The notes beneath the pieces are model-generated. The model did not search any database, had not been told where the DNA came from, and saw only the letters and a list, made by a program, of their open reading frames with translations. 64,000 bases of DNA from an uncultured Clostridia bacterium. Lineage in GTDB: Bacteria; Bacillota; Clostridia; TANB77; CAG-508. This document shows positions 2,242 through 60,207 of the stretch, piece by piece (position 1 is the first letter of the stretch; each line of letters starts with the position of its first letter). Where the stretch lies: NCBI GenBank assembly GCA_934149275.1, contig CAKPEG010000004.1, positions 1,806-65,805 on the forward strand, read 5' to 3'. Position numbers and translations under genes: made by a program.

Positions 2242-2262
2242 AAATATTAATTATAGAAAAAA

Positions 2263-2385
2263 GAAAATATTATATTGATTTTTTAGTTCCTTGCTAAAAT
2301 ATTTTCCCACCTACTAAACTTCGTTTAGAAGGTTAGGGAAAAACTTTCAAACTGCGCGTCACTCAAAAATCAATATAATATTTTC
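2263..2385 (-). repeat. Family-A palindromic MITE-like repeat, copy A1 (core inverted relative to the other copies)
   Basis: ~22-bp terminal inverted repeats GAAAATATTATATTGATTTTT. The core is the reverse complement of the core at 14852, 22846, 49040 and 54140. Confidence 0.9.
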
Positions 2386-2425
2386 TTAACAATTTTTAAA
2401 ATTTAATTATTAATATGTAAGTTCA

Positions 2426-8204: not shown

Positions 8205-9203
8205 ATGAATTTCATAGAAGAAATGAAAAAGAAGGCAAGAACCGATATAAAGACAATTGTACTTCCAGAAGCGGAAGACAAAAGAGTTCTTGAAGCAGCA
8301 AGCAAAGTTGAAAAAGAGGCATTTGCTAAAATAATATTAATAGGAAATATTGAAAAAACAAAAGAATTAGCAAAAGAAAATAATATAGACATTACAAACA
8401 TTGAAATTATTGATCCAGAAAAATCAGAAAAATATGCTGAATATGTACAAGCTTTTTATGAATTAAGAAAAGCAAAAGGAATTACAGAAGAAGATGCAAA
8501 AAAAATAATTAAAAATCCGGTATACTTTGGAATGATGATGGTAAAAAGAGAAGATGCTGACGGACTTGTGTCAGGAGCAGCTCATTCAACATCAGATACT
8601 TTAAGACCAGCACTTCAAATTCTAAAAACAGCACCAGGAACAAAACTTGTTTCAGCGTTTTTCTTAATGAACGTTCCAAATTGCGAATATGGTGAAAATG
8701 GAATTTTTGTATTTGCAGATAGCGGATTAAATGAAAATCCAGATAGTGATAAGTTAGCAGAAATTGCAGCATCATCTGCAAAAAGTTTTGAACAATTAGT
8801 TGGGAAAGAAGCAAAAGTAGGAATGCTTTCATATTCAACATATGGAAGTGCAAAATCCGAATTAACAGAAAAAGTAATCGAAGCTACAAAGTTACTTAAA
8901 GAAAGATATCCCAACATTAAATCTGATGGAGAATTGCAATTAGATGCAGCAATAATTCCTGAAATTGCAAAAAGCAAAGCACCAGAAAGTGAAGTGGCAG
9001 GACAATGTAATACATTAGTATTTCCCAATTTAGATGCTGGAAATATAGGATACAAATTAGTACAACGTTTAGCAAAAGCAGAAGCTTATGGACCTTTATG
9101 TCAAGGAATTGCAAAACCAGTAAACGATTTATCTCGTGGTTGCTCAAGTGATGATATAGTTGGAGTAGTTGCAATAACTGCAGTACAAGGACAAACAAAA
9201 TAA
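8205..9203 (+). CDS. pta: phosphate acetyltransferase
   Basis: 332 aa. Typical Pta sequence (IVLPEAEDKRVLEAA, GLVSGAAHSTSDTLRPALQI, NDLSRGCS). Confidence 0.92.
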   Translation: MNFIEEMKKKARTDIKTIVLPEAEDKRVLEAASKVEKEAFAKIILIGNIEKTKELAKENNIDITNIEIIDPEKSEKYAEYVQAFYELRKAKGITEEDAKKIIKNPVYFGMMMVKREDADGLVSGAAHSTSDTLRPALQILKTAPGTKLVSAFFLMNVPNCEYGENGIFVFADSGLNENPDSDKLAEIAASSAKSFEQLVGKEAKVGMLSYSTYGSAKSELTEKVIEATKLLKERYPNIKSDGELQLDAAIIPEIAKSKAPESEVAGQCNTLVFPNLDAGNIGYKLVQRLAKAEAYGPLCQGIAKPVNDLSRGCSSDDIVGVVAITAVQGQTK

Positions 9204-9257: not shown

Positions 9258-10460
9258 ATGAAAATATTAGTAGTAAACTGTGGAAGCTCATCATTAAAAT
9301 ATCAATTAATAGATATGGAAAATGAAAAACTTTTAGCAAAAGGAAATTTTGAAAGAATAGGTGAAAAAGAATCTTTTGTTACACATAAAGTAAACGGAGA
9401 AAAATATGTAGTAAAAGAACCTGTAAAAGACCATGAAGAAGCTTTGAAAATAGTATTACAACAATTAGTACACAAAGATTATGGTGTAATAAAAGATTTA
9501 TCAGAAATAAATGCAGTAGGACACAGATTAGTACATGGTGGAGAAATATTTAACCAATCAGTTTTAATAACAGAAGATGTTATTAAGAAATATGAAAGTT
9601 GTTCAAGCTTAGCACCATTGCACAATCCAGCAACAATATTAGGAATCAGAGCTTGTCAAAAAGAAATGCCAGGAGTTCCAATGTGTGGAGTTTTTGATAC
9701 AGCCTTCCATCAAACAATGCCGAAAGAAAATTACTTATATCCAATTCCATATGAATACTATGAAAAATATGGAATAAGAAAATATGGATTCCATGGAACA
9801 TCACATCAATTTGTTTCAAAAAGAGCTGCAGAAATCATAGACAAAAAAGATGGAGATTTAAAAATAGTTACATGTCACTTAGGACAAGGTGCATCAATTT
9901 GTGCAATAAAAAACGGAGAATCACAAGACACATCAATGGGATTATCACCATTAGGTGGAATAGCGATGGTAACAAGATCTGGAGACTTAGATCCATCAGT
10001 AGTTACAGAAATAATGGAAAGAGAAAACTTATCAGCAAAAGAAGTTAACACAATATTAAATAAAAAATCAGGATTATATGGAATAACAGGATTAGATCCA
10101 GATTTTAGAGAAATAGAGTTAGCATCTTATAAAGATGACCAACCAAAAGCACAAGTTGCAATCGAACTATTCACACAAACAATAGCACAATTCATAGCAA
10201 AATATGCAGTAACATTAAGAGGAATAGATGCAATAATCTTCACAGGGGGAATTGGAGAAAACCAAATTAATATAAGAAAGAAAATCTGTGAAGACTTAGA
10301 GTGGATGGGAGTTAAACTTGATTTAGAAAAGAACAACGTAAGAAGTGTAGAAACAAAAATATCAAGCGAAGATTCAAAAGTTGAAGTTTATATTATCCCA
10401 ACAGACGAAGAAATGGTAATAGCAAGAGATACAAAGAGAATTGTAGAAAATAATAAATAA
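9258..10460 (+). CDS. ackA: acetate kinase, paralog 1
   Basis: Motifs NCGSSSLKYQL, GHRLVHGG, YGFHGTSH, TRSGDLDP, PTDEE. Confidence 0.92.
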   Translation: MKILVVNCGSSSLKYQLIDMENEKLLAKGNFERIGEKESFVTHKVNGEKYVVKEPVKDHEEALKIVLQQLVHKDYGVIKDLSEINAVGHRLVHGGEIFNQSVLITEDVIKKYESCSSLAPLHNPATILGIRACQKEMPGVPMCGVFDTAFHQTMPKENYLYPIPYEYYEKYGIRKYGFHGTSHQFVSKRAAEIIDKKDGDLKIVTCHLGQGASICAIKNGESQDTSMGLSPLGGIAMVTRSGDLDPSVVTEIMERENLSAKEVNTILNKKSGLYGITGLDPDFREIELASYKDDQPKAQVAIELFTQTIAQFIAKYAVTLRGIDAIIFTGGIGENQINIRKKICEDLEWMGVKLDLEKNNVRSVETKISSEDSKVEVYIIPTDEEMVIARDTKRIVENNK

Positions 10461-10467
10461 TTGAAAA

Positions 10468-10502
10468 AAACTAGAAGTTTTTGTAGAACTTCTAGTTTTT
10501 TT
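10468..10502 (+). terminator. intrinsic terminator after ackA paralog 1
   Basis: Stem AAACTAGAAGTT / AACTTCTAGTTT followed by a T-run. Confidence 0.8.
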
Positions 10503-10738
10503 GCCTCAAAAGGTTGATTTTTAGCCTAAAACCTTGATATAATAAAAATACGTCTTTATAATTTTACATTATAAAAATAAATCGTATTCGTACATTGATA
10601 TCGCGAATGAAATTTAATTATAATTTTAGCAGGACTAAATATAATATAAATTCTAAGTGCTAATCAAGTATAGCTAAGTAGCATACTTGCCTAATCGGCA
10701 TGCTACCTAAAAAAGAAAATATTAAGGGGGAAGCTAAT

Positions 10739-11923
10739 ATGAAAGTTTTAGTTTTAAACTGTGGAAGTTCATCTTTGAAATGTCAATTGATCGATATGGA
10801 GAAAAACGAAAGAATTATGAAAGGACACTATGACAGAATAGGAGGTGCAAGATCTTCACTACGATTTAATGTAAGAGGAGAAAAAACAGTAATTGAACAT
10901 CCTGCAAGAGATTTTGAAGAAGCGATAGGAGAAATCTTAAACTTATTAGTAAGTGATGAATACAAAGTTATAAAAAGCTTTGATGAAATAGGAGCAGTAG
11001 GACACAGAATAGTACACGGAGGAGAAAGATTTAAAGAATCAGTAGTAATAAATGATGATGTAATAGATGCTATAAAAGAGTGCATAACATTAGCACCATT
11101 ACATAACCCAGCAGGTTTGGCAGGAATATATGCATGTCAGAAACTATTACCAAACGTACCAATGGTAGCAGTATTCGACACATCATTCCATCAAACAATA
11201 CCAGAAAAAGCATTTATATATCAATTGCCATATAAATATTATGAAGACTATAAAATAAGAAAATATGGATTCCACGGAATTTCACACAGATATGTTGCAA
11301 ACAGAATATCAGAAATTCTTGGAAGAAAAGATTTAAAAATAATAAATTGCCATCTTGGACAAGGTGCATCATTATGCGCAATTAAAGATGGAAAATCAAT
11401 AGACACAACAATGGGACTAACGCCACTAGCAGGCGTTCCAATGGGAACAAGATGTGGAGACGTTGACCCATCAATCATACCAACAGTAATGAAATTATAT
11501 GATATTCAACCAGACGAAATGTTAAGAATAATGAACAAAGAATCAGGAGCTTGGGGAGTATCAGGAGTTTCAACAGACTTTAGAGATATAGAAAGAACAG
11601 CAGCAGACGGAGATGAAAGATCAATTTTAGCACTAGAAAGTAGAGCATACATAATTGCACAATATATTGCAAAATTTATTGTAACTCTAAACGGGGTTGA
11701 TGTAATAACATTTGCAGGTGGAATTGGAGAAAATGGATTCGAAGAAAGAGAAAGAATTTGTGGATACTTAGAATGCTTCGGAATAAAATTAGATAAAGAA
11801 AGAAATCTAACAAGAGGAGAAGAATATAAAATATCAAGCGATGATTCAAAAGTTGATATTTACATAGTACCTACAAATGAAGAAATTGTAATAGCAGAAG
11901 ATGCATACAATTTAACAAAATAA
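10739..11923 (+). CDS. ackA: acetate kinase, paralog 2
   Basis: Motifs NCGSSSLKCQL, GHRIVHGG, YGFHGISH, TRCGDVDP, PTNEE. Start at the MKVLVLN ATG, preceded by an AAGGGGG RBS. Confidence 0.9.
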   Translation: MKVLVLNCGSSSLKCQLIDMEKNERIMKGHYDRIGGARSSLRFNVRGEKTVIEHPARDFEEAIGEILNLLVSDEYKVIKSFDEIGAVGHRIVHGGERFKESVVINDDVIDAIKECITLAPLHNPAGLAGIYACQKLLPNVPMVAVFDTSFHQTIPEKAFIYQLPYKYYEDYKIRKYGFHGISHRYVANRISEILGRKDLKIINCHLGQGASLCAIKDGKSIDTTMGLTPLAGVPMGTRCGDVDPSIIPTVMKLYDIQPDEMLRIMNKESGAWGVSGVSTDFRDIERTAADGDERSILALESRAYIIAQYIAKFIVTLNGVDVITFAGGIGENGFEERERICGYLECFGIKLDKERNLTRGEEYKISSDDSKVDIYIVPTNEEIVIAEDAYNLTK

Positions 11924-11933
11924 AAATAAATCA

Positions 11934-11966
11934 TACTGGTGATAAAAGGTCGCCAGTATTTTTTTA
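11934..11966 (+). terminator. intrinsic terminator after ackA paralog 2
   Basis: Stem ATACTGGTG / CGCCAGTAT followed by a T-run. Confidence 0.75.
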
Positions 11967-12004
11967 TAAAAATTTCGGTACAAAGCTGATTATACAAAAA
12001 ACTA

Positions 12005-12033
12005 TTGATATAAAAAAATATTAATGTTAAAAT
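12005..12033 (+). promoter_or_regulatory. sigma-A type promoter upstream of ackA paralog 3
   Basis: TTGATA, 17 nt spacer, TAAAAT, with a TG extension. Confidence 0.45.
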
Positions 12034-12072
12034 TTGAACAGAAAAATTTAAAAGAAGGAAGTTAAATTAAGT

Positions 12073-13266
12073 ATGAAAATTTTAGTATTAAATTGCGGAA
12101 GCTCTTCTTTAAAATTCCAATTGATAAACATGGAAAACAACGAAAGATTAGCTAAAGGAAATTTTGAGAGAATAGGTGGAATGAAAACCACATTAAAATT
12201 AAACGTAGGAGGCAAGAAAGAAGAATTAGTTCACATTGCCAGAGACTACGATGAAGCAATAAGTTTTGTATTAGAAGTTTTATTAAAACCAGAATATAAC
12301 ATAATAAAATCATTAGACGAAATAACAGCAGTAGGACACAGAATAGTACACGGAGGAGAAATGTTCAGCAAATCCGTACTAATAAATGATGACGTAATAA
12401 AAGAAATTGAAAAATGCATAGACTTAGCGCCATTACACAATCCAGCAGGAGTAGCAGGAATCAAAGCTGCCAAAAATGCATTACCAAACGTACCAATGGT
12501 AGCAGTATTTGACACAGCATTCCATCAAACAATGCCAGCAAAAGCATATATATATCAAATACCTTACAGATATTACACAAGCTACAAAATAAGAAAATAC
12601 GGATTCCATGGAGCAAGCCATAAATATGTAGCTGAAAGAGTTTCACAAATATATGGAAGAACAGAAGACTTAAAAATAATAAACTGTCACCTAGGACAAG
12701 GTGCATCAATATGTGCAATTAAAGATGGAAAATCAGTAGACACATCAATGGGATTAACACCACTAGCAGGAATACCAATGGCAACAAGATGTGGCGATAT
12801 AGATCCAGCAATAATTCCTTATGTAATGAAAAAAGATAATTTACAACCTGAAGATATAGAAGATATATTAAATAAACAATCAGGAGCATGGGGAGTATCA
12901 GGAGTTTCATCAGATTACAGAGATATAGAAGACGGATATAATATGAAAGATCCAAGATCAATATTAGCACTTGAAAGCCAAGCATACAAAATAGCACAGT
13001 ACATCGGGCAATACATTATCTCACTTGGAGGCTTAGACGTTCTAACATTTGCAGGAGGCGTTGGAGAAAACGGAATAGAAACAAGAGAACGAGTATGTAA
13101 ATACCTAGAACCATTTGGAATTAAGATAGACACAGAATTAAACAACATTAAAGGAAAAGAAAGAAAAATAAGCACAGAAGACTCAAAAGTAGATATCTAC
13201 ATAATACCAACAAATGAAGAATTAATGATTGCAAAAGAAACAGAAGAACTAGTTAAAAATTCATAG
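12073..13266 (+). CDS. ackA: acetate kinase, paralog 3
   Basis: Motifs NCGSSSLKFQL, GHRIVHGG, YGFHGASH, TRCGDIDP, PTNEE. Confidence 0.9.
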   Translation: MKILVLNCGSSSLKFQLINMENNERLAKGNFERIGGMKTTLKLNVGGKKEELVHIARDYDEAISFVLEVLLKPEYNIIKSLDEITAVGHRIVHGGEMFSKSVLINDDVIKEIEKCIDLAPLHNPAGVAGIKAAKNALPNVPMVAVFDTAFHQTMPAKAYIYQIPYRYYTSYKIRKYGFHGASHKYVAERVSQIYGRTEDLKIINCHLGQGASICAIKDGKSVDTSMGLTPLAGIPMATRCGDIDPAIIPYVMKKDNLQPEDIEDILNKQSGAWGVSGVSSDYRDIEDGYNMKDPRSILALESQAYKIAQYIGQYIISLGGLDVLTFAGGVGENGIETRERVCKYLEPFGIKIDTELNNIKGKERKISTEDSKVDIYIIPTNEELMIAKETEELVKNS

Positions 13267-13543: not shown

Positions 13544-14779
13544 ATGTTTCAAAAAGAAACATTGTCATCAAATGCTTCAGAAAAGAATAAAACGTGTATA
13601 TCATCACGGACACAAAAATATAATTTGAAATATCCGAGAGTTAAACGTGGAGAATTATATATTTGTGATTTTGGAGAACCTTATGGAAGTGAGCAAGGCT
13701 ATAAAAGGTTTGCTTTAATAGTGCAAAATAATAGAGGAAATCGAGTATCACCTACTACAATAGTTGTAGCGTGTACCACTAAAAAGAAAACCAATTTACC
13801 AGTTCACTATCAGTTCAATCTTTCCCCAAGCATAATGAAAGACTACAACCAAAAACGAATAGGAGAAGAAGTCGATGGAAATACCATATTAGCAGAGCAA
13901 ATAAAGACAGTAGACAAAAAAAGATTACGTAAATTTCTTGGAACAATGACAGATGAATTTATGGATGAAGTACAGAAAGTTATAGATATATCGCTAGATT
14001 TGAAAAGAGATACAGTAAAGTCAGTACAGGATTTAAGTATCATACAGATTCAGCTACTCGCAAAAGCTAATATAGAAAAACTTTTAGAAATTTCTCGGAC
14101 TATAGAGCCAGACGGGATTAAAATAAAGCGGATAATTGAATTATTTGGCTTTGATTTAGAATCAGAGGGGGCGCAATATTTAGTTAAAGCAATTTGCTTA
14201 GCTACCAAAGCAGACTATTCTGATCTAGAAAATTTATGTGAAGAAATTTCTAAAGAGAAGCACACTTTATCCCAAGAGAAAATGAAAGCAATAATTGTAA
14301 CTACAATAAAAGAAAAATTCAATTTTGAAACTTCTGTAGCAATTGAGTTCATTAGATTGATAAGTATACTTTTAGTTAAAGAACCAATTCCAGAGATTAA
14401 GGAAATTGAGTCACTGGAAAATAGCAAAGGAAAAATCGAAAATCTTTTGTGGAAATACTTAAAAAAAGATTTAGAAAAAATAGATTATTCTATGACGGTT
14501 GAGGAGAACATAGACTACTTCTTAGATAGTATTGGTATGTCTACAGATGAAATAATAATGCAATCATTTGTTATTGCTTGTAATACAAAAAGAATAACCT
14601 ATGCGAAGATTATCAATCAGCTTAAAGAAATGTATCCTGAAAAAATGAGTACAGAACTTAGAAAAACTTTGAGAGATAATTTTAAAAAATGGTTAGAAAA
14701 GAATCCAGAGTTAGCGACGCAGTGCAGACAAATTTCAATTATGAATTTACTTAAACTCTTTGCAAAAATGTTTGCATAA
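13544..14779 (+). CDS. MazF/PemK-fold endoribonuclease toxin domain fused to a ~260-aa helical C-terminal region of unknown function
   Basis: Residues ~30-160 match the MazF/EndoA pattern (RGELYICDFGEPYGSEQGYKRFALIVQNNRGNRVSPTTIVVACTT ... ILAEQIKTVDKKRL ... DEFMDEVQKVIDISLDL). A strong AAGGAGGAG RBS is present. The C-terminal part has two helical repeats. Confidence 0.7.
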   Translation: MFQKETLSSNASEKNKTCISSRTQKYNLKYPRVKRGELYICDFGEPYGSEQGYKRFALIVQNNRGNRVSPTTIVVACTTKKKTNLPVHYQFNLSPSIMKDYNQKRIGEEVDGNTILAEQIKTVDKKRLRKFLGTMTDEFMDEVQKVIDISLDLKRDTVKSVQDLSIIQIQLLAKANIEKLLEISRTIEPDGIKIKRIIELFGFDLESEGAQYLVKAICLATKADYSDLENLCEEISKEKHTLSQEKMKAIIVTTIKEKFNFETSVAIEFIRLISILLVKEPIPEIKEIESLENSKGKIENLLWKYLKKDLEKIDYSMTVEENIDYFLDSIGMSTDEIIMQSFVIACNTKRITYAKIINQLKEMYPEKMSTELRKTLRDNFKKWLEKNPELATQCRQISIMNLLKLFAKMFA

Positions 14780-14822: not shown

Positions 14823-14851
14823 ATATATTATTAATGATTTTTAGACATAAA

Positions 14852-14973
14852 CGAATATTATATTTGATTTTTGAGTGACGCGCAGTTTGAAAGTTTTTCC
14901 CTAACCTTCTAAACGAAGTTTAGTGGGTGGGAAAATATTTTAGCAAGGAACGAAAAAATAAATATAATATTCG
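14852..14973 (+). repeat. Family-A palindromic MITE-like repeat, copy A2
   Basis: TIRs CGAATATTATATTTGATTTTT / AAAAAATAAATATAATATTCG with the conserved core GAGTGACGCGCAGTTTGAAAG...CTAAACGAAGTTTAG... Confidence 0.9.
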
Positions 14974-14980
14974 TAAAATG

Positions 14981-16654
14981 TTAAGGAACTATAATAGTTT
15001 TATAATTCGTATAATTAACCATACCAGTTTTTCCTGTATGATGTTTTTTTACATACTTAATGTAAGTATAATCAACAGAAACATTTCGCTCTAAAGCAGC
15101 TCTAGAATTTTGCTTTGCAAGCTGAGCACATTTAAAAATTGTATCATCATCAGGAATTTTTCCATTTGTTTTTAAAATAACATGAGCCCCGTGGAACCCT
15201 TGAGCATGAAACCATAAATCAGATTTATCAGCAAAGTGAAGAGACAAATAATCATTTTGCTTATTATTTTTTCCAATATAAACATCATATTTATTAATAA
15301 CTATTTTATTAAGATTATTTGTAAGATTTTTATCATTGCTAACCTTTTGGAAAGATTTATAGTTATATTTTTTCATTAAAACATTTTCAGAAAATTCATT
15401 ATGAATTTCTTCAACATCTTCAATACAAGTTGCATTAGAAAGCGAATAAATTATACTTTCAATATATTCAAGCTCAACCTCAGCTTCTTTTTTCTGAACA
15501 GTAACAATGGCCAATGTATTTTTTAATTTATTATATTTTTTGAAAAATCTTTCAGCATTTTTGCTATAAGAAACAGAAGTATTAAGAGGAATATCAATTA
15601 AATTATTGTTATCATAGTAATTTTCAACCCTAATAGAAGATTGAGCAAAATTTTCATGATATCTATAAAGATTTGCAGTTAAAAGCTCACCATATAGCTT
15701 ATATTTATCCATATCATTGCATGATTTTAATTTCTGATTGATATTCTCAAGTTTTTTTGAAGCCTTTTTTAAAGCAGAAAGAATAGACTTTGAAAGTTCA
15801 GCCTTAGCGCTCAAAAAATTATCTTCAATTTCTTTTTCATGATAGAAATTATCTAAAAAATCGTTTATAGAAGACGTATCGTCATTTGCTAATTCAATAG
15901 TATAATCTTTACCAATCTTTTTAAGAGATATATTTTCCGTTCCAAGATTTTCAATAGTATTTTTTATATAATCAAAAATTTCCTCTAATTCATTAACATC
16001 TTTTGTAGAATCTTCAATTCCTAAATCTTCAAGAATATTTGAAATAAATAGAGGAGTAAATCCAGTAAAAATTTCTGATAAATAAGAAGATATAGAATCA
16101 TAAGAACCTTGTGATATTAATGCATAAAATTCATTAAATGAGTTAATATTCAAAAAAGAATTTTTATTTGACGTAGGTGCAATATATGGTCTTGCAGGTA
16201 ATATTTCTCTATCTGAAGTAATAATATGCTTTAGAGAGTCTATTATAAAACCTTTATGATTAAGCAAAATAACATTGCTACGTCTCCCCATAAGTTCAAT
16301 AACTAATCTATATTTAACAGTATCTTTAAGCTCATTGCTTCCTTCAAAATCAATAAAAATAATTCTATCTAAATCAACACTTTCAATATTTGTTATTCTG
16401 CTACTAGTTAAATATTTTCTAAGTAGCATACAAAAATTCAGTGCGTTAGTAGGATTAGGCTTAGAAATTTTAGTAAGACACATTCTGTAATAAACAGGAT
16501 GAATACAAATATCTAACATATAATTTGTAGAATTATATAAGTTTAAAATAATTTCAAATTTACTAGGTTGTAAAACTTTATTTACACGAGCTCCAATAAG
16601 TTTATTTTGAAAGTCGGAAACAATAGATTTTACAACGATTCCATCAAATGCCAT
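14981..16654 (-). CDS. rqcH: RqcH / fibronectin-binding protein A (NFACT family) ribosome quality-control protein
   Basis: N-terminus MAFDGIVVKSIV...LIGARVNKVLQP and C-terminal block WFHAQGFHGAHVILK. Confidence 0.88.
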   Translation of the reverse strand: MAFDGIVVKSIVSDFQNKLIGARVNKVLQPSKFEIILNLYNSTNYMLDICIHPVYYRMCLTKISKPNPTNALNFCMLLRKYLTSSRITNIESVDLDRIIFIDFEGSNELKDTVKYRLVIELMGRRSNVILLNHKGFIIDSLKHIITSDREILPARPYIAPTSNKNSFLNINSFNEFYALISQGSYDSISSYLSEIFTGFTPLFISNILEDLGIEDSTKDVNELEEIFDYIKNTIENLGTENISLKKIGKDYTIELANDDTSSINDFLDNFYHEKEIEDNFLSAKAELSKSILSALKKASKKLENINQKLKSCNDMDKYKLYGELLTANLYRYHENFAQSSIRVENYYDNNNLIDIPLNTSVSYSKNAERFFKKYNKLKNTLAIVTVQKKEAEVELEYIESIIYSLSNATCIEDVEEIHNEFSENVLMKKYNYKSFQKVSNDKNLTNNLNKIVINKYDVYIGKNNKQNDYLSLHFADKSDLWFHAQGFHGAHVILKTNGKIPDDDTIFKCAQLAKQNSRAALERNVSVDYTYIKYVKKHHTGKTGMVNYTNYKTIIVP

Positions 16655-22804: not shown

Positions 22805-22829
22805 AGGGGCTACAATCAGTAGTCCCTTT
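22805..22829 (+). terminator. intrinsic terminator after spoVS
   Basis: Stem AGGGGCTAC / GTAGTCCCT followed by TTT. Confidence 0.6.
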
Positions 22830-22845
22830 ATTAATTATAGAAAAA

Positions 22846-22969
22846 GAAAATATTATATTTGGTTTTTGAGTGACGCGCAGTTTGAAAGTTTTTCCCTAAC
22901 CTTCTAAACGAAGTTTAGTAGGTGGGAAAATATTTTAGCAAGGAACGAAAAAATAAATATAATATTTTC
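22846..22969 (+). repeat. Family-A palindromic MITE-like repeat, copy A3
   Basis: TIRs GAAAATATTATATTTGGTTTTT / AAAAAATAAATATAATATTTTC. Outer flanks are TTAATTATAGAAAAA and TCAACAAT. Confidence 0.9.
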
Positions 22970-23077
22970 TCAACAATAAATAATAATACGCATTAGCTTT
23001 AGCACAAAATAACAATCATAGTCTTGAAACAAAAATAAAAATAGTATATTATAATCAAAGATGAAACGAGGTGAAAA

Positions 23078-24764: not shown

Positions 24765-25811
24765 ATGAAAGAAAACGATGAAAAGAGAAAAGCCCTAGAT
24801 GCAGCAATGGGACAAATAGAAAAACAATTTGGAAAAGGTTCTGTAATGAAATTAGGAGAGTTCAAAGCAATGGAAGTTGAAGCAATTCCAACAGGAGCCT
24901 TAACACTAGACGTTGCACTTGGAATAGGAGGAATTCCAAAGGGAAGAATAATAGAAATATTTGGTCCAGAATCATCAGGAAAAACAACACTTGCACTTCA
25001 TGCAATAGCTGAATCTCAAAAAGCTGGAGGAACAGCAGCATTTATAGATGCAGAACATGCATTAGATCCAGTATATGCAAAGAAGCTAGGCGTAGATATA
25101 GATAACTTAATAGTTTCACAACCCGATACAGGTGAACAAGCATTAGAAATAACAGAAGCATTAGTAAGAAGTGGTGCTATAGACATAATAGTAGTAGACT
25201 CTGTTGCAGCATTAGTCCCAAAGGCTGAAATAGATGGAGATATGGGAGATACACATGTTGCATTACAAGCTAGACTAATGTCACAAGCTTTAAGAAAATT
25301 AGCAGGAGTTTTAAATAAATCAAAAACAGCAATAATATTTATTAACCAATTAAGAGAAAAAGTTGGTATTATGTTTGGAAATCCTGAAACAACACCAGGT
25401 GGAAGAGCATTAAAATTCTATGCATCTGTTCGTTTAGATATAAGAAGAATAGAAAATATTAAACAAGATGGCGAAGTTATAGGAAATAGAACAAGGGTTA
25501 AAGTTGTAAAAAATAAAGTTGCTCCTCCTTTCAGAGAAGCAGAATTTGATATTCTATATGGAGAAGGAATATCTAAAGAAGGAAGCATTTTAGATTTAGC
25601 AGTTAACCTAGATATAATAGATAAAAGTGGTGCTTGGTTTAGTTATAATGGTGCAAAGATTGGTCAAGGAAGAGAAAACGTAAAAAGATACTTAAAAGAA
25701 AATCCAAAAATATTAGCAGAAATTGAACAAAAAATTAGAGATAACTATAGCAAAGCATTTGAACAAGCTTTAGATGAAAATGCGCCAGAAGAAAAAGAAG
25801 ACGAAGAATAA
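24765..25811 (+). CDS. recA: recombinase RecA
   Basis: Walker [10 protein letters not shown], plus [13 protein letters not shown] and [20 protein letters not shown]. Confidence 0.98.
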
Positions 25812-32879: not shown

Positions 32880-32909
32880 TGTAGCAACTACAGATATAGT
32901 CTTTTTTTT
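32872..32909 (+). terminator. riboswitch expression-platform terminator
   Basis: Stem GACTTATCTGTAG / CTACAGATATAGTC followed by T8. Its 5' arm overlaps the aptamer P1 3' strand. Confidence 0.7.
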
Positions 32910-33056
32910 ATATAATAGGAAAGTTCTCCGAACTTCCTATTATATAAAATAACAATGCACAGAAATTTGCTCTGCAAATTTCGCGCGCGAACAAAGACGC
33001 GGACTTAAAAATGTTATAATTGGTGCAAATGTTATTAATGTCCGCTTTTGTTCTAT
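32909..33056 (+). repeat. Family-B structured repeat, copy B1
   Basis: Three hairpins: TATATAATAGGAAAGTTC/GAACTTCCTATTATATA, GAAATTTGC/GCAAATTTC and GAACAAAGACGCGGAC/GTCCGCTTTTGTTC. About 150 bp aligns with 40872-41020. Confidence 0.85.
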
Positions 33057-40846: not shown

Positions 40847-40872
40847 AAGTTAGTGCTAGCCACTAACTTTTT
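40847..40872 (+). terminator. intrinsic terminator
   Basis: Stem AAGTTAGTG / CACTAACTT followed by TTTT. Confidence 0.7.
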
Positions 40873-41020
40873 ATATAATAGGAAAGTTCTCTGAACTTCC
40901 TATTATATAAAAATAATAATGCACAAAAATTTGCTTTGCAAATTTCGCACACGAACAAAGACGTGGACTTAAAAATGTTACAATCAGTACAAAGGCTATA
41001 AATAGCCCGCTTTTGTTCTA
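40872..41020 (+). repeat. Family-B structured repeat, copy B2
   Basis: Colinear with 32909-33056, with the same three hairpins and an internal TGTTACAAT box. Confidence 0.85.
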
Positions 41021-43686: not shown

Positions 43687-45558
43687 ATGAAAAAAACTTT
43701 TAGTATATCAATAATACTTATAATGATATTAGTTTTACAAATGATATTACCATTATACACAAATGCTGTAAAAATAAATAATGAAGAAGAAAAATTAATA
43801 GGAGCAGGAGAAAATTCAATTAATGTAAGCTTAAAACGTGACAGTGAAGATAAAAACAAAATAAATATTACAGCTACAGATTCAGCTTATAAGATAACAG
43901 AGCTAAAATATGTACATAAATATATAAAGATAGAAGAAATAGAATACTTTGAAGCTGATAACGAAGATGTACATACTATTTCAATCACACCTGCTCAAAA
44001 AATAGAGCAATCATTTGAGATGGATGGCTATGGATCATATACAGTATATGTAAAAAATGAAAAAGGTGATAGATATTTAAGTAGAATGACAATAAAAGAT
44101 CCAGCTGAAATGCCTGATATAACTCTAACAAGAGATTCAGATGATATGCGTAAATTAGAAATACAAGTAACAAGCAAAAATAATAAAATAGTAAAAATAA
44201 AAATCGCCAGAAAAGAAAAATATGATGATAAAATCGATTTTGAAACTCAAGGTGAAGAATTAGAATTTGAACCAAGCAATAATGTAACTGTAAAATACAC
44301 ATCAGCTACTCAAAATGGAATATATGTAATATATGCAGAAGATGACCAAGGAAATAAATCAACTTCACAAACATATTTAGGTGAAACTAAAACTCCAATT
44401 CAAGCAAAAACAACATTAGACAATAAAAACAGAAAAGCACAAATAGAAATAGAAGATAGCTTATGCAAAATTGTAAAAGTTAAAGTTGCTAAAAAATCAG
44501 AAATAAATAACATAAACGACTTTAAGACAGAAGGAGAAGATATTGAGATAACATCAGATAATAGAGTTGAAGTAGAATATGTTGCTCCAGAAGATGACAC
44601 ATATATGTTTTATATAGAAGACGAAGCTGGTTACAAGAAAATGATTCAAATGCGAATTACAAAAGAAAATTCTATAGATATTTCTGTTTCACAAGATGAT
44701 AATGACAAGAAAATTGTAACAATAAAAGCAACTGATTCAATTTGCGATATTGTAAAAATAAAAGTTGCATTAGGGGAAAATATCGATAGTGACTACTTTA
44801 AAACAAACGGACAAGAGCTTCAAATAACTCCTGGTAAAGAAGTTGAAGTTAAATGTTCAGTAAGTGAAAATTGTATATTAAATATATATGTTGAAGATGA
44901 AGAGGGATATAAAGTAATTACTACTAGAAATATTATAGGCATACCAGTAGATGATAATAAACCGGACGATAGCAAACCAGATGATAGCAAACCAGATGAT
45001 AGTAAACCAGATGATAGCAAACCAGATGATAGTAAACCAGATGATAGTAAACCAGATGATAGTAAACCAGATGATAGTAAACCAGATGATAGCAAACCAG
45101 ACGATAGCAAACCAGATGATAGCAAACCAGACGATAGCAAACCGGACGATAGTAAACCAGACGATAGCAAACCAGATGATAGCAAACCAGATGACAACAA
45201 ATCAGATGATAACAAGCAAGATGACAGTAAATCAGACAATAACAAACAAGATAATAATAAATCAGACGATAATAAGTCAGATAATAATAATAAAAACAGC
45301 AATACTCAAAATGATAATAAACAACAAAATAACAATTCAAACAATAATAAACAAAATAATACAAACAACAATTCAAATCAAAAAGAAACAACAACTAATA
45401 ATCAATCAAATATAAATAATAATTCAGCAAACAGTTCAACAACAAGCCAAAACAATTTACCTAAAACAGGTTGGAACAACATAATGTTAGTAATAACAAC
45501 TGTAATTGTTGCAATTTGTGCAGTTGTAAGTTTTGTGAAATATAAGAAAATAAAATAA
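43687..45558 (+). CDS. LPXTG-anchored cell-wall surface protein with four ~90-aa repeat domains and a PDDSK/N-rich stalk
   Basis: Signal peptide, four related beta-rich modules (..IVK[IV]K[IV]A..), a PDDSK x15 stalk, and an LPKTG sorting motif followed by a hydrophobic helix and a KYKKIK tail. Confidence 0.9.
   Translation: MKKTFSISIILIMILVLQMILPLYTNAVKINNEEEKLIGAGENSINVSLKRDSEDKNKINITATDSAYKITELKYVHKYIKIEEIEYFEADNEDVHTISITPAQKIEQSFEMDGYGSYTVYVKNEKGDRYLSRMTIKDPAEMPDITLTRDSDDMRKLEIQVTSKNNKIVKIKIARKEKYDDKIDFETQGEELEFEPSNNVTVKYTSATQNGIYVIYAEDDQGNKSTSQTYLGETKTPIQAKTTLDNKNRKAQIEIEDSLCKIVKVKVAKKSEINNINDFKTEGEDIEITSDNRVEVEYVAPEDDTYMFYIEDEAGYKKMIQMRITKENSIDISVSQDDNDKKIVTIKATDSICDIVKIKVALGENIDSDYFKTNGQELQITPGKEVEVKCSVSENCILNIYVEDEEGYKVITTRNIIGIPVDDNKPDDSKPDDSKPDDSKPDDSKPDDSKPDDSKPDDSKPDDSKPDDSKPDDSKPDDSKPDDSKPDDSKPDDSKPDDSKPDDNKSDDNKQDDSKSDNNKQDNNKSDDNKSDNNNKNSNTQNDNKQQNNNSNNNKQNNTNNNSNQKETTTNNQSNINNNSANSSTTSQNNLPKTGWNNIMLVITTVIVAICAVVSFVKYKKIK
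44962..45201 (+). repeat. in-frame 15-bp tandem repeat (CCAGATGATAGYAAA, 15 PDDSK units plus one PDDNK) inside the surface-protein gene
   Basis: Counted directly: 16 consecutive 15-nt units with only synonymous wobble differences. Degenerate units continue to about 45300. Confidence 0.95.
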
Positions 45559-48041: not shown

Positions 48042-48977
48042 ATGGATTTTAGAACAGATATGGCTGTAGAAAGAAGAGATGTATTTAGAAAAATAAACAA
48101 GATATCTAAAGAAATCCCAGGAATAGAAAGCGAAGAAAAGCAGATTTCGGATACAATTCATGTATATAATGTTAGAGTAAAAGACGATGAAGGAGCACAA
48201 GCAATACAAAAGCCAATTGGAAATTATGTGACTATAGATGTTAAAAAAATGAGAAATATTCCAAATGAAGAAAAAGAGAAAATTGCTTTTGCAATATCAA
48301 GTGAATTACAGCAATTAATTAAAGGATTAGTTAATCCTAAAGATGAAATATTAGTTGTAGGATTAGGAAATTTATATTCAACACCAGATTCTTTAGGCCC
48401 AAAAGTAATACAAAGTATTGATGTTACAAGACATATTTTTAAATATTTGCCACAGTATGTGAACGAAAATGACAGAGAAGTTTCTGCGATTTCACCAGGT
48501 GTTTTAGGAAGTACAGGAATTGAAACACAAGAAATATTAAAAGGAATTGTAGATAATGTTAAACCAAAATTAATAATTGCAATAGATAGTTTAGCCTCAA
48601 AGAGTGTAGAGAGAATAAGCAGTTCTGTACAATTATCTGACACAGGAATTATACCAGGTGCAGGTGTTGGAAATAAGAGAAGAGAGCTTTCAAAAGATAC
48701 ATTAGGAGTTCCAGTAATTGCAATTGGTATTCCTACTGTTTTAGATTTTGCAACAATTGTAAGCGAAGGATTAGATTTGTTTATAGAGAATCTGCAAGAT
48801 AAGGCAATGTCAAATGAATATTTAAATCAATTACATGATAGGGATAATTATGAAGAAGTAAAATCAGCATTAAATATAGGTGAATACAATATGATTGTTA
48901 CTCCGAAAGAAATTGATGATTTAGTAGATAATATGAAAGATATTGTCGCAAAAGGAATAAATATTGCAATAAGTTAA
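48042..48977 (+). CDS. gpr: GPR germination (spore) endopeptidase
   Basis: MDFRTDMAVERRD, VVGLGN...TPDSLGP and AIDSLAS. Confidence 0.9.
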   Translation: MDFRTDMAVERRDVFRKINKISKEIPGIESEEKQISDTIHVYNVRVKDDEGAQAIQKPIGNYVTIDVKKMRNIPNEEKEKIAFAISSELQQLIKGLVNPKDEILVVGLGNLYSTPDSLGPKVIQSIDVTRHIFKYLPQYVNENDREVSAISPGVLGSTGIETQEILKGIVDNVKPKLIIAIDSLASKSVERISSSVQLSDTGIIPGAGVGNKRRELSKDTLGVPVIAIGIPTVLDFATIVSEGLDLFIENLQDKAMSNEYLNQLHDRDNYEEVKSALNIGEYNMIVTPKEIDDLVDNMKDIVAKGINIAIS

Positions 48978-48984
48978 TAAGAAA

Positions 48985-49020
48985 AATCTTATATGTAATT
49001 TGCACATATAAGATTTTTTT
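48985..49020 (+). terminator. intrinsic terminator after gpr
   Basis: Stem AATCTTATATGT / ACATATAAGATT followed by T7. Confidence 0.85.
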
Positions 49021-49039
49021 ACGTTTATTAATTATAGAA

Positions 49040-49164
49040 GAAAATATTATATTTGATTTTTGAGTGACGCATAGTTTGAAAGTTTTTCCTCAGGTATTCT
49101 AAACGAAGTTTAGTAGGTGGGAAAATATTTTAGCAAGGAACAAAAAAATAAATATAATATTTTC
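49040..49164 (+). repeat. Family-A palindromic MITE-like repeat, copy A4
   Basis: Same TIRs and core as the other A copies, with a diverged 5' arm of the central hairpin (CCTCAGGTATT). Outer flanks are TTAATTATAGAA and TTAATAAT. Confidence 0.9.
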
Positions 49165-49298
49165 TTAATAATAAAAGTGCTTTTAACCGCCATGTATTGA
49201 AAAATATGTTATTGACATATTAATATTTAATGAATAAAATTAGATTGAAGAAATACTATAAGATAAAACATAAAATAAATGAAAGAGAGGAAAATAAT

Positions 49299-50504
49299 AT
49301 GGGATTTATTAAAGCATTTACAGGAGCATTAAGTGGAACATTTGCAGATCAATGGTTAGACTTCTATGTGCCAAAAGCAGGAGTACCAGCAACAGCAGCA
49401 GTATTTGGAGCAGAGAAAAAAGAAAAAGATAATGGTAGAGGAGAAAATACAAAAGGATCTGAAAATATAATAACAAACGGAAGTAAAATAGTAGTTCCAG
49501 AAGGAACAGCATTAATTACATTACAAGATGGAGCAATAACAGGATGTATAACAGAGCCAGGAGGATTTATTTTTACATCAGATGATCCTAATTCAAGATC
49601 ATTCTTAGCTGGAGATGGAATAATTTCATCAACATTAGGAACATCTTGGCAAAGATTTAAATATGGTGGAATACCTGGAAGTGAGCAAGTAGCTATATAT
49701 GTAAATTTAAAAGAAATACCAGGAAACAAATTTGGAACACAATCAGAAATATATTGGGATGACGCATTTTTAGGAACACAAGTTGGAGCATTAGCAAGAG
49801 GTACATATACAATGAAAATCATAGATCCAATATTATTTATAAAATCATTTGTACCTGCTGAATATTTAAGACCAGGAGCAGAAGTGTTTGATTTTGCTGA
49901 TATGGATAATCCAGCAGGAGAGCAATTATTTAACGAAGTTGTAGGAAGCTTATCAGCAGCATTCTCAAATTATTCAAACGATCCAAGTAGAGGAAATCGT
50001 ATGGCAAAAATACAAGGAGATCAAATTGGATTTGCTCAAAGCTTATCTCAAGCAGTTGAAGAAGGATATGGATGGAAATCAGGAAGAGGATTAGAAGTAG
50101 TAAAAGTTGCAATAACAGCTATTGAGTATGACGAAGATACTAAGAAATTATTAAGTGATGTTAAGAAAGCAGATGCTTTGTCAGGTGCAAGAGGAAATTC
50201 ATTTATGCAACAATCAGTTGCACGTGGATTCCAGGCAGCAGGTGAACAAGGCGGAGGATCTGGAATGGCATTTATGGGAATGGGAATAAATTCAGTAGGA
50301 GGATCAATGGGTGCTTTCCAACAGCCAGTGCAACAGCCTCAACAACCAGCTCAACAGCCAGCTCAGCCAGCACAACCAGCGCAACCAGCGCAATCACAAG
50401 AAGATCCATACGAAAGACTAGCTAAATTAAAAAAATTAGCAGATGATGGAGTTATAACTCAAGAGGAATTCGAAGCAGAAAAGAAAAAACTTTTGGGGGT
50501 TTAG
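49299..50504 (+). CDS. SPFH-domain (virion-core-protein-like, YdjI-type) protein with P/Q linker and C-terminal SHOCT domain
   Basis: N-terminus MGFIKAFTGALSGTFADQWLDF, a QQPVQQPQQPAQQPAQPAQPAQPAQ linker, and a C-terminal RLAKLKKLADDGVITQEEFEAEKKKLL (SHOCT pattern). Confidence 0.7.
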   Translation: MGFIKAFTGALSGTFADQWLDFYVPKAGVPATAAVFGAEKKEKDNGRGENTKGSENIITNGSKIVVPEGTALITLQDGAITGCITEPGGFIFTSDDPNSRSFLAGDGIISSTLGTSWQRFKYGGIPGSEQVAIYVNLKEIPGNKFGTQSEIYWDDAFLGTQVGALARGTYTMKIIDPILFIKSFVPAEYLRPGAEVFDFADMDNPAGEQLFNEVVGSLSAAFSNYSNDPSRGNRMAKIQGDQIGFAQSLSQAVEEGYGWKSGRGLEVVKVAITAIEYDEDTKKLLSDVKKADALSGARGNSFMQQSVARGFQAAGEQGGGSGMAFMGMGINSVGGSMGAFQQPVQQPQQPAQQPAQPAQPAQPAQSQEDPYERLAKLKKLADDGVITQEEFEAEKKKLLGV

Positions 50505-50507
50505 AAT

Positions 50508-51929
50508 ATGAATGAAGAAAACGGAGCAACTGTCATAAAAACAGATGTTGGAGCAAAAGATGGTCAAAACAAATGTCCTAAATGTGGAGCTACAGATATT
50601 TCATTAAATCCTAGAAGCGGAAAGTTGAGATGTAATTTTTGTAGATATGAATTTGAACCAGAAAAATTTGATGCAATGGAAACAGATATAAGCAACTTAC
50701 AAGGAGAAGTTGTAGGTTCAGGAGCATCTGATATAATTGCAGACACAAATGATATGGTAACATTTAAATGTAGTAGTTGCGGTGCAGAGGTTGTAGTTGA
50801 TACAGCACAAGCAACTCAAGCTAGATGTCATTGGTGTAGAAATACATTATCTGTAAACCAACAAATTCCCAATGGAGCTGTACCAGATACTGTACTTCCA
50901 TTTAAAATTTCTAAAAAGGAAGCTAAGGAGTCAATTGAACAATTTGTAGGAAAAAGAAAATTCTATGCTCATCCTCAATTTAGAAGAGAATTTACAACAG
51001 AAAATGTAATGGGAGTATATTTACCATACATGATTGTTGATGCAAATGCACATGCCAATTTGCAAGGACAAGGAGAAGTAGAAACAAGAAGTTGGACAGA
51101 GAAAAATGGAGACACATATAGAACATATTATGATGCAGATTTATATGACATTGAAAGAGATTTTGATTTAACAATTGAAGGTTTAACAGTTGAATCAAGT
51201 AAAGATAAACTTGATAGAAGTGGAAAAACAAAAACAAATAATATTATAAATTCAATTATGCCATTTGATACAGAAAACTGTGTAAAATGGGATTCAAATT
51301 ACATAAAAGGATATACATCAGAAAAAAGAGATACAAATGTTGATGAATTAAAAGAACTTGTTGAAGCTCAATCAAAAGACATAGCAAGATTTGCAGCAAA
51401 CAAAACAATTACAAAATATGATAGAGGTGTAAGATGGGATTCTGAGAGACTAGAAGTAAAAGGACAACAATGGAAATCAGCATACTTACCAGTTTGGTTA
51501 TATAGCTATCAAGAGAAAAAAGGTAATGAAAGTTTATTACATTATGTTGCTGTAAATGCCAGAACTAAAGAAACAATGGGAAGTGTTCCAATTCATATGC
51601 CTAAATTATTTGCAATGTCAGCATTTGTTGAACTTTTTGGTATAATCGCTATGATGTTTACAATGAGTGATGATAGATATTGGCCATGGCTATTTTTATT
51701 AAGTGGTTTCATATATTTTTGGATAATATATTCTAAATATAGAAACACAGGTGCAAGACACAATTATGAAACAGAAACAAAAACAGATGTGAAAAATTTA
51801 CGTGAAGAAGATAGATTTATTAGAAAAAGAACTAGACTTGATAATTCAACAATGGAAGGAGCTAATAATAAAAAAATTACAGGAAACGTAGGTTTTAGCT
51901 TCGACAGTGTAAAAAATATGCTTAAATAA
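50508..51929 (+). CDS. double zinc-ribbon membrane protein (YdjG-like)
   Basis: CPKCGA..17..CNFC and CSSCGA..16..CHWC ribbons, with two C-terminal TM helices. Starts 4 nt after the SPFH gene's stop. Confidence 0.6.
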   Translation: MNEENGATVIKTDVGAKDGQNKCPKCGATDISLNPRSGKLRCNFCRYEFEPEKFDAMETDISNLQGEVVGSGASDIIADTNDMVTFKCSSCGAEVVVDTAQATQARCHWCRNTLSVNQQIPNGAVPDTVLPFKISKKEAKESIEQFVGKRKFYAHPQFRREFTTENVMGVYLPYMIVDANAHANLQGQGEVETRSWTEKNGDTYRTYYDADLYDIERDFDLTIEGLTVESSKDKLDRSGKTKTNNIINSIMPFDTENCVKWDSNYIKGYTSEKRDTNVDELKELVEAQSKDIARFAANKTITKYDRGVRWDSERLEVKGQQWKSAYLPVWLYSYQEKKGNESLLHYVAVNARTKETMGSVPIHMPKLFAMSAFVELFGIIAMMFTMSDDRYWPWLFLLSGFIYFWIIYSKYRNTGARHNYETETKTDVKNLREEDRFIRKRTRLDNSTMEGANNKKITGNVGFSFDSVKNMLK

Positions 51930-51939
51930 AATTTTCAAT

Positions 51940-51968
51940 AAAGAGAACTTAAAAGAGTTCTCTTTATT
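51940..51968 (+). terminator. intrinsic terminator
   Basis: Stem AAAGAGAACT / AGTTCTCTTT. Confidence 0.7.
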
Positions 51969-52022
51969 TGAAATATATGATATACTTCATAAGAAATTAA
52001 AACAAAAGGAGTGATTGCACAT

Positions 52023-52655: not shown

Positions 52656-52723
52656 ATATGTATATAAAATTAATAATTATTGGTATAATAAACAAGAGAA
52701 AAAAGAAAAGGAGATGTTAACGA

Positions 52724-53875: not shown

Positions 53876-53890
53876 GGTTATATATTCAAT

Positions 53891-54119
53891 GAAAAATTTT
53901 ATATTAACTTTTTGAATCACCGCGCAGGGACCAAACGAACGAAGTGAGTTCGATTGAAGCATTCTACCCGGTTAGAAAATAAAAAATATCAATTGACTAT
54001 AAAGCCAATTGATATTTTTATTTTCTAAATTTAAAGAATGCAGGGCAGCAAGGTGTGAGAAAATTAATATAAAATTTTTCAACCGCGGTGGTTCGAAAAA
54101 GCTTAATATAAATTTTTTC
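53891..54119. repeat. Family-C composite palindromic repeat (TIRs related to family A) enclosing a 22-bp-stem hairpin
   Basis: Left end GAAAAATTTTATATTAACTTTTTGAATCACCGCGCAG against right end (reverse complement) GAAAAAATTTATATTAAGCTTTTTCGAACCACCGCGG. An extra internal right-end copy ends at 54080. The central hairpin spans 53972-54026. Confidence 0.8.
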
Positions 54120-54139
54120 TAGAATAAAAGTATAAAAAA

Positions 54140-54257
54140 GAATATTATATTTATTTTTTAGTGACGCGCAGTTTGAGAGTTTTTACCTAACCTTCTAAAC
54201 GAAGTTTTGTGGGTGGTAAAATCTCTTAGCAAGAAGCAAAAAATAAATATAATATTC
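54140..54257 (+). repeat. Family-A palindromic MITE-like repeat, copy A5
   Basis: Diverged copy. The outermost pair of the central hairpin has changed from C-G to A-T on both arms (compensatory). Confidence 0.85.
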
Positions 54258-54269
54258 TTTTAAAAGTTA

Positions 54270-54959: not shown

Positions 54960-55034
54960 AAAAATACTCCTTATTTTTTTCTATTATTATATCAATTACG
55001 AGAAAGATATTTCAATAGAAAATAAGGAGTAAAA

Positions 55035-55862: not shown

Positions 55863-55964
55863 ACAATAAGCCTCCTACAAAAGTATTATTGACACTTTGT
55901 AATAGTTTATTCTAAAAGACAAAAAAAGAGTTTGTCATATTACGACAAACTCAAAATATATATT

Positions 55965-60116: not shown

Positions 60117-60143
60117 AAAGAGAGCATATCAAGCTCTCTTTTT
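60117..60143 (+). terminator. intrinsic terminator
   Basis: Stem AAAGAGAGC / GCTCTCTTT followed by TT. Confidence 0.7.
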
Positions 60144-60145
60144 GC

Positions 60146-60180
60146 ATAATAGAGAAGTTCTTAGAACATCCTATTATATA
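60146..60180 (+). repeat. partial Family-B repeat (hairpin-1 module only, degenerate)
   Basis: ATAATAGAGAAGTTCTTAGAACATCCTATTATATA matches the first hairpin of B1/B2 and again directly follows a terminator. Confidence 0.6.
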
Positions 60181-60207
60181 AATACATTAAGAAAGGAAGA
60201 TTTTTAA

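Follow-up and report, generated by a model that had tools for sequence, protein, structure and literature searches.

The window, i.e. the whole 64-kb stretch of DNA that was analysed, has a G+C content of 28.5% and carries chromosomal genes, such as those for NrdD, Pta, three acetate kinases, DpaA, SpoVS, RecA and ScpA, glycogen genes and others. Repeat detection, together with a profile search, located in it five copies of a palindromic repeat (A-type, A1 to A5), each of about 125-150 bp, and no A-type copies beyond these. In the window copies, inverted arms of 21-24 bp enclose an asymmetric, strongly conserved core of about 79 nt. Every copy sits just 3' of a gene, and A1 to A4 are each preceded by a terminator hairpin, which was read directly (terminator-like sites were also listed by a scan). 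A5 is a fifth copy, absent from the preliminary description of this DNA. The features are as follows.

5 nt before the outer motif of A1: terminator hairpin and T-run of gene 1816-2199 (read directly; the scan gives a minus-strand reading only)
2245-2393, core on the minus strand: A1 as a whole (direct reading and profile)
2245..2262, plus strand: outer motif M of A1, TATTAATTATAG (2245-2256), with its A-run, the non-inverting outer end (from the sequence)
2263..2283, no strand: left arm of A1, GAAAATATTATATTGATTTTT, 21 bp
2286..2364, minus strand: core of A1, 79 nt, reverse-complemented with respect to A2-A5
2365..2385, no strand: right arm of A1, AAAAATCAATATAATATTTTC, complementary to the left arm
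2386..2393, plus strand: opposite outer flank of A1, TTAACAAT, a weak inverted-repeat partner of M
14852..14973, plus strand: A2, composed of arm, core (14873-14951) and arm, without an exact M
22829..22977, plus strand: A3, composed of M (22829-22840), A-run, arm (22846-22867), core (22868-22946), arm (22947-22969) and TCAACAAT
24765-25811: RecA gene
49026..49172, plus strand: A4, composed of M (49026-49037), arm (49040-49061), core (49062-49141, TCAGG variant), arm (49142-49164) and TTAATAAT
53889..54082, plus strand: a related palindromic repeat (B-type), directly left of A5 (from the sequence)
54136..54261, plus strand: A5, a more diverged copy with 24-bp perfect arms and its core at 54160-54237

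Direct reading of positions 2245-2393 on the plus strand gives, for A1, the order TATTAATTATAG-AAAAAA-GAAAATATTATATTGATTTTT-TA-(GTTCCTTGCTAAAAT...GCGCGTCACTC)-AAAAATCAATATAATATTTTC-TTAACAAT, with the core in brackets. A3 and A4 have the same left motif and arms as A1 and similar right flanks (TCAACAAT and TTAATAAT, respectively), and their cores read GAGTGACGC...GCAAGGAAC, which is the reverse complement of the A1 core. The core 26-mer GGTGGGAAAATATTTTAGCAAGGAAC has four matches in the window, against zero expected; the match in A1 is on the minus strand, whereas the other three, at 14926, 22921 and 49116, are on the plus strand. Each window copy scored 116-142 bits with the family profile on one strand and 15-37 bits on the other, the strand called being minus for A1 and plus for A2 to A5. 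This gap between the strands implies that the core is truly asymmetric, and that A1 alone is inverted. The preliminary description, in which the core of A1 was said to be flipped while both outer flanks keep the polarity of A3 and A4, is thus borne out by direct reading as well as by the strand scores of the profile.

The window has some further peculiarities. Three tandem acetate-kinase-like paralogues (9258-10460, 10700-11923 and 12073-13266), which share 67-81% DNA identity over the region 9258-13266, lie downstream of the phosphotransacetylase gene (8205-9203). The 411-aa protein encoded at 13544-14779, directly upstream of A2, has PemK_toxin as its sole recorded Pfam match; a normal PemK/MazF toxin, of about 110 aa, is far shorter. 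ORF 43687-45558, which has no Pfam match, contains at 44845-45384 more than 24 tandem units of 15 nt, i.e. a 5-residue repeat in the protein.

Two more repeat families are present. The B-type repeat has arms AAAATTTTATATTAA / TTAATATAAAATTTT and boundary motifs GAATCACCGCGCAG / GCAGCAAGGTGTGAG that resemble those of the A-type, with a different and longer interior of about 150 nt that includes a terminator-like hairpin, and about 10 other loci carry it, often next to an A-type copy. The third family occurs at window positions 32904-33039, 40867-41003 and 60138-60203, and also at one of the related loci (L009). Its copies have a perfect AT-rich hairpin, TATATAATAGGAAGTTC...GAACTTCCTATTATATA, and in two of them a tail of about 90 nt, 86% conserved, comes after the hairpin; this tail lies upstream of an MntP-like gene (33116) and of ORF 41038. 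No Rfam match was obtained for this third repeat, nor, in particular, a yybP-ykoY riboswitch call.

Anatomy of the A-type family and its outer motif

Outside the window, the core pattern was found in three gut MAGs named 'uncultured Clostridium sp.' (UMGS1994, UMGS1672 and ERR1855544_bin.37) and in 73 metagenome stretches, mostly from human gut. An alignment of 116 copies, 76 of them distinct, was set in core orientation. From the outside in, the element consists of the imperfectly symmetric ends M(A)n and TTAACAAT, which are found in one subfamily, of the arms, and of the core. The arms are 21-26 bp long and near-perfectly complementary in every copy (perfect over 15-25 bp); their sequence varies from copy to copy, complementarity being kept within each copy, so that at least two types of Watson-Crick pair are observed at 10 of the 12 outer-arm pairs and at 7 of the 26 inner pairs. 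The core is the best conserved part, with a mean pairwise identity of 0.88 versus 0.79-0.81 for the outer arms. One A-type copy (L010, 4060-4280; L083, 6880-7090) occupies the loop of another, larger inverted repeat that contains GC, GTTGTCATAGGGATGTCCTTTTTGACA ... TTGTCAAAAAGGACGTCCCTATGACAAC, an arrangement that looks like nesting in another palindromic structure or in a bidirectional terminator.

According to folding predictions, the asymmetric core folds back on itself, and the whole element forms a rod-shaped hairpin of about 130 nt, whose stability greatly exceeds that of shuffled sequence (z = -6.3 to -10.6). The apical hairpin of the core, CTAAAC-GAA-GTTTAG, shows compensatory C-G, T-A and A-T variants. 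The core-forward strand folds better, with 150 G.U versus 13 A.C cells in the alignment; as most of the G.U cells come from two invariant positions, they do not decide which strand is the relevant one. No ORF of any length was found when both strands of the core were read. None of the A-type element, the B-type element and the third repeat matched an Rfam family, either at gathering score or at permissive E-values; the best match on the A-type element was a plant miRNA model (E = 0.84), and only tRNAs were called at gathering score over the window. The plasmid and phage collections contained nothing similar to the element, and two matches to viral contigs were dismissed as chance matches inside coding sequence.

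The outer motif M (TATTAATTATAG) was searched as an exact string in 795 kb of DNA, comprising the window and all of the related loci that were fetched. It occurred 33 times, and all 33 occurrences adjoin an element; M always reads inward to the arm, the opposite polarity being seen in 0 of 33. In the window, the exact 12-mer TTAATTATAGAA is present at three places, beside A1, A3 and A4 only. M was found at 11 independent loci, where the forward and reverse orientations of the core with respect to M are in a ratio of about 6.5:4.5 (a polymorphic locus being counted as half each). The right-hand flank TTAACAAT is weaker than M, yet it recurs at most of the M-bearing loci, and AATTGTTAA, its complement, weakly mirrors AATTATAGAA. 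Many copies lack M (A2, A5, L010, L011, L110 and others), and no unoccupied M site was found in the 795 kb searched; therefore, M is not an independent target site. M belongs to the element itself, as the diverged outer end found in one subfamily.

These data bear on the possibility, which the preliminary description had named as part of what would refute its own reading, that the flanks of A1, A3 and A4 are alike by chance in AT-rich DNA, and likewise on that of an assembly artefact. The G+C content of 28.5% would favour chance similarity, and misassembly at this repeat does happen, as hybrid metagenome contigs joined through the element (L025, L035, L048, L130 and L138) may illustrate. Nevertheless, an exact 12-mer confined to element flanks, with all 33 copies of M adjacent to an element in one fixed polarity, does not agree with chance, while the arrangement of A1 recurs in 13 independent assemblies, and flipped arrangements are found in many independent assemblies, including contigs of more than 100 kb. 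This explanation is hardly conceivable, and these observations already refute it.

Core orientation at orthologous loci

A locus of UMGS1672 (L003) is collinear with window positions 48742-56765, with 94% identity over 8 kb. In it, A4 has the same orientation as in the window, and the core of A5 is reverse-complemented, its arms and flanks being unchanged; the A5 orthologue is inverted in many metagenome contigs as well. Further polymorphic loci were accepted only if both flanks matched, and opposite core orientations were recognized in this way at three of them, between L011/L110 and L066/L084/L087, between L052 and L060, and between L099 and L053/L088/L114. Hence, both orientations exist at at least four orthologous loci across related strains or species, with the same arms and flanks, which answers in the affirmative the question, raised in the preliminary description, of whether related strains differ in orientation at the same locus. 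Polymorphic orientation concerns 4 of the 18 loci for which at least two orthologues were sampled.

Three of the four polymorphic loci have flipped partners that are mutual nearest relatives among 75 other distinct copies, which argues for inversion in place and against independent insertions. The cores of L099 and L088 are 100% identical (99.2% for the whole element); those of L011 and L084 are 98.7% identical, and have in common the rare variants AGCGAC, AAAAGATTTT and GGAGC. The flipped partners L052 and L060 are not nearest relatives, and copy replacement or conversion also occurs at this locus. The asymmetry of the inner arms travels with the core (TTTGG versus TTTG in L099/L088, TTTGGTTTTTG versus TTTATTTTTTC in L060), and the crossover must therefore lie within the outer, perfect 14-16 bp of the arms. 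The sequence of this crossover region differs among the flipping loci (TATTATATT, TATAATATT, TAGTATATT and TATTGTATT).

The same data allow one to judge the idea that the arm-core-arm unit is a cassette which transposes, either way round, into a conserved target, TATTAATTATAG(A)n|TTAACAAT. This was one of the two situations considered in the preliminary description, and it would agree with the resemblance of the arms to terminal inverted repeats, with the constant polarity of M relative to the adjacent terminator, and with the A2 site, which is empty in a related species. In the latter (L091, 13146-13197, compared with window 14826-14990), the sequence is shorter by about 120 bp, close to the length of arm, core and arm, with a diverged spacer that blurs the ends of the insertion; the same contig carries an A1 orthologue 12.5 kb away, as in the window. 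However, all 33 M sites in the 795 kb are occupied, and M is absent from many copies, so that it is not a required target. When the flanks were read by eye, no consistent target-site duplication was seen around either the arms or the M/TTAACAAT ends. In addition, flipped orthologues have in common locus-specific arm variants and rare core variants, and insertion would require the same copy to re-insert at the same base. The cassette model is thus not supported, and we regard it as very unlikely.

We conclude that, as lineages diverged, the segment within the perfect outer part of the arms underwent inversion in place on repeated but rare occasions, leaving the M/TTAACAAT ends and the neighbouring genes untouched. 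In-place inversion inside fixed outer ends yields exactly the pattern that distinguishes A1 from A3 and A4.

As to the rate of these events, the species of the window was defined as the contigs encoding identical neighbouring proteins. Within it, the window included, orientation is fixed at A1 (14/14), A2 (8/8) and A5 (8/8), and the A1 arrangement recurs in 13 independent assemblies. For A5, 26 further contigs, each encoding one of three exact variants of the TraX protein next to it, were fetched. Both orientations were found even in association with an identical TraX (6 versus 2 contigs for P0017, 8 versus 2 for P0021), and orientation was linked in 26 of 26 contigs to the core haplotype, defined by 3-4 SNPs (AGTGAC/CCTTC/ATCTC in the window orientation, AGCGAC/CCCTC/ATATC in the flipped one). 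It was also linked to a 17-bp difference in gene spacing in all of the 17 contigs in which the downstream Fe-ADH was called. Because frequent switching would uncouple orientation from the linked SNPs, complete linkage implies that the two states are old alleles, which were later shuffled by homologous recombination. The flips are probably rare inherited events like those of the Neisseria Correia elements, and not a fast genetic switch; switching at low frequency within populations may nonetheless occur.

One consequence of a flip concerns a promoter-like site, TTAGCA-17-TATAAT, which matches the consensus at 10 of 12 positions and has its -35 box at the end of the core and its -10 box in the adjoining arm.

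2269..2297, minus strand: promoter-like site in A1, pointing left (consensus match only)
22935-22963, plus strand: the same promoter-like site in A3, pointing right to the downstream gene (consensus match only)

Since both arms, read outward, contain TATAAT, a flip of the core re-aims this site; in A3 and A4 it aims at the downstream gene. Judging from the match to the consensus, a flip could redirect weak outward transcription. Among unique loci, the genes on either side of the element are convergent in about 15 cases, tandem in about 14 and divergent in essentially none. Where they are tandem, the site is directed at the downstream gene in 9-10 cases and away from it in 5-6, a bias that is not significant. 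Given this lack of a significant bias, and given that convergent genes surround about half of the copies, we see no evidence that selection uses the promoter-like site.

A programmed inverton, in which an unlinked site-specific recombinase reversibly flips the cores and thereby re-aims the hybrid TTAGCA-17-TATAAT promoter between neighbouring genes, would account for the anatomy (an invertible segment between inverted repeats) and for both orientations at at least four orthologous loci and among contigs with identical TraX. It would also give a meaning to the 10/12 promoter-like site, which straddles the boundary of core and arm, reverses with the core, and points at the downstream gene in A3 and A4. 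This model is nonetheless unlikely, in view of the complete linkage of orientation and haplotype (26/26), the fixed orientation of A1, A2 and A5 in the species of the window, and the arm and crossover sequences, which differ between flipping loci and fit poorly with a sequence-specific recombinase. The orientation of the cores is not significantly biased to downstream genes, convergent genes flank about half of the copies, and the 64 kb contain no recombinase. As for this last point, the preliminary description had suggested searching for tyrosine or serine recombinases; Pfam annotation of the whole 64-kb window revealed no recombinase of either kind, and no invertase or transposase, and RecA is encoded there; an unlinked invertase or transposase may exist elsewhere in the host genome. 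The proposal of an inversion across the inverted repeats is supported as regards an evolutionary event, observed at four loci with the same arms and flanks; it is not supported as regards a phase-variable inverton, given the fixed orientation within the species, the linkage to haplotype, the variable arms and the lack of an invertase in the window.

Possible origin of the inversions

The inversion is exact, has the arms as its limits, and was observed at several loci. We consider it probable that the element is a MITE/REPIN-like quasi-palindrome, whose centre inverts rarely through arm-to-arm recombination or replication template switching, without a dedicated enzyme. The arms themselves would be the substrate of the inversion. 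Two routes can be envisaged, namely RecA-type intramolecular recombination between the two arms, and template switching between the arms of the quasi-palindrome during replication. For the former, the perfect identity of the arms, over 14-24 bp, is short. The latter seems more likely to us, and it would also explain the mirror evolution of the arms. Template switching at quasipalindromes, promoted by hairpins, has been described to 'perfect' imperfect arms (PMC7202029), and recurrent small inversions of loops, associated with hairpins, are found between close relatives in plastomes (PMC12371153). The same arm-to-arm process would hold the arms mirror-identical while they drift between copies, and the flips would behave as effectively neutral, heritable alleles.

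A passive inversion of this kind does not cover one feature of the family, namely the conservation of the core above that of the arms, which suggests a sequence-specific function. It might be thought that the core of about 79 nt is a constrained functional module, either a structured RNA or a protein-binding site, that the arms let it turn, with each flip re-aiming the hybrid promoter, and that the family would amount to slow, heritable 'evolutionary invertons' spread over the whole genome, with an unlinked recombinase as a possible cause of the flips. The higher conservation of the core and the compensatory changes along the whole rod are the basis for this proposal, which, taken as a whole, appears distinctly unlikely to us, passive inversion between the arms remaining the preferred explanation.

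It should be noted that in several hybrid contigs (L025, L026, L035, L048, L002, L065, L067, L076, L130 and L138) the left and right flanks stem from different element loci and meet inside the conserved core, and that many contigs end within the element. Such hybrids reflect either genuine rearrangement between copies or chimeric assembly. In one of them (L025, contig k127_57037257), the SpoVS side of A3 is joined to the inverted gene-1816 side of A1; this junction is that expected from a 20-kb inversion between the oppositely oriented cores of A1 and A3, but could equally be an assembly chimera. Exchange between two whole elements was rejected as a source of the A1 pattern, as it would preserve the end-to-core polarity of each element. 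The elements also mark contig breaks and hybrid junctions, which affects the assembly of MAGs and the inference of synteny in this lineage.

For screens of invertons in gut metagenomes that rely on inverted repeats or on the comparison of assemblies (of the PhaseFinder or DeepInverton style), dispersed palindromic repeats are an expected confounder, and the flipped core between fixed flanks described here is a heritable structural allele that mimics an inverton in assemblies. Inversion in place of the core of a MITE, known so far from Neisseria Correia elements, is extended to an uncultured gut Firmicute, and the family offers many natural replicate loci at which the dynamics of quasi-palindromes, i.e. 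mirror evolution of the arms and inversion of the loop, can be followed.

Classification and comparison with known systems

The family has several features of a MITE. It is 125-150 bp long, non-coding, dispersed and multi-copy (five in the 64 kb and 76 distinct ones in related DNA), it has terminal inverted repeats in every copy, and it is polymorphic for presence or absence at the orthologous A2 site. No autonomous partner with the same terminal repeats was found in the 795 kb, where arm-like sequence away from cores occurs at chance level only. A tblastn search of the same 795 kb for an IS200/RAYT-like gene returned nothing below E = 0.25, a weak test made with one IS200 TnpA sequence as the query.

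Some other classes were considered and discarded. The ends of the element, TCTTAAC / GTTAAGA, miss the RYYYAAC...GTTRRRY of integron attC sites, and the copies lie 8-26 kb apart among housekeeping genes, with no integrase. On anatomy, a retron ncRNA was rejected, as there is no adjacent RT, and so was a single-strand origin of rolling-circle replication (RCR), the copies being chromosomal and dispersed. As in an inverton, both orientations of a segment between inverted repeats exist at one and the same locus; the family was nonetheless not filed as an inverton, as there is neither a nearby recombinase (none in 64 kb) nor an orientation independent of haplotype.

Among known systems, the small inversions of plastids and quasipalindrome mutations resemble our case in that a loop between short perfect inverted repeats flips among close relatives with no dedicated recombinase, and in that the template switching which flips the loop also perfects the arms (PMC12371153, PMC7202029). 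However, those are single-locus events that may affect any hairpin, whereas here the element is dispersed and multi-copy, with a conserved loop of about 85 nt and a mechanism that we infer. Invertons, such as the promoters of Bacteroides polysaccharide loci and fimS, also have a segment flanked by inverted repeats that is found both ways, with a promoter-like site turning along (PMC11892184, PMC11602134). In contrast to them, the present family has no invertase that was found, its arms are not conserved between copies, its orientation is linked to haplotype and fixed within the species, and it occupies gene 3' ends or the space between convergent genes rather than positions upstream of regulated operons.

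REP/REPIN and ERIC sequences are likewise dispersed, non-coding and hairpin-forming, and lie downstream of genes near terminators, clustered with other repeats. The differences are that no RAYT/IS200-like gene was found in the 795 kb (with the one IS200 TnpA query), and that REPINs have conserved ends and a variable loop, while the reverse is true here.

The Correia elements (CREE or 'nemis') are a Neisseria-specific sequence family with 26-bp terminal repeats, a TA duplication and an IHF site. They share with the A-type family the nature of non-coding MITEs of about 100-200 bp with long terminal inverted repeats, a conserved core and many intergenic copies, and the formation of promoter-like sequences at the ends of the element. 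Unlike them, the A-type element has a core more conserved than the arms, arms that co-vary between copies, an additional one-sided outer motif M, and a location almost only at gene 3' ends and not upstream of genes; its flips are old haplotype-linked alleles, and stress-induced inversion is not part of this picture. The host is one of the Firmicutes and not Neisseria, no TA target duplication was seen, and the sequence is apparently unrelated. The family is accordingly filed as MITE/REPIN-like and not as CREE, an assignment made on the different host and on the lack of a visible TA duplication. Correia elements are reported to invert in place (Elbeyioglu 2017, via PMC10969869), and Correia copies to act as breakpoints of chromosomal rearrangement (PMC10969869; PMC2649163), two further points of likeness. 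CREE is the closest functional analogue of the A-type element, and is not taken as its parent family. The A-type element is an undescribed family of a known kind, for which the inversion of Correia elements is the precedent.
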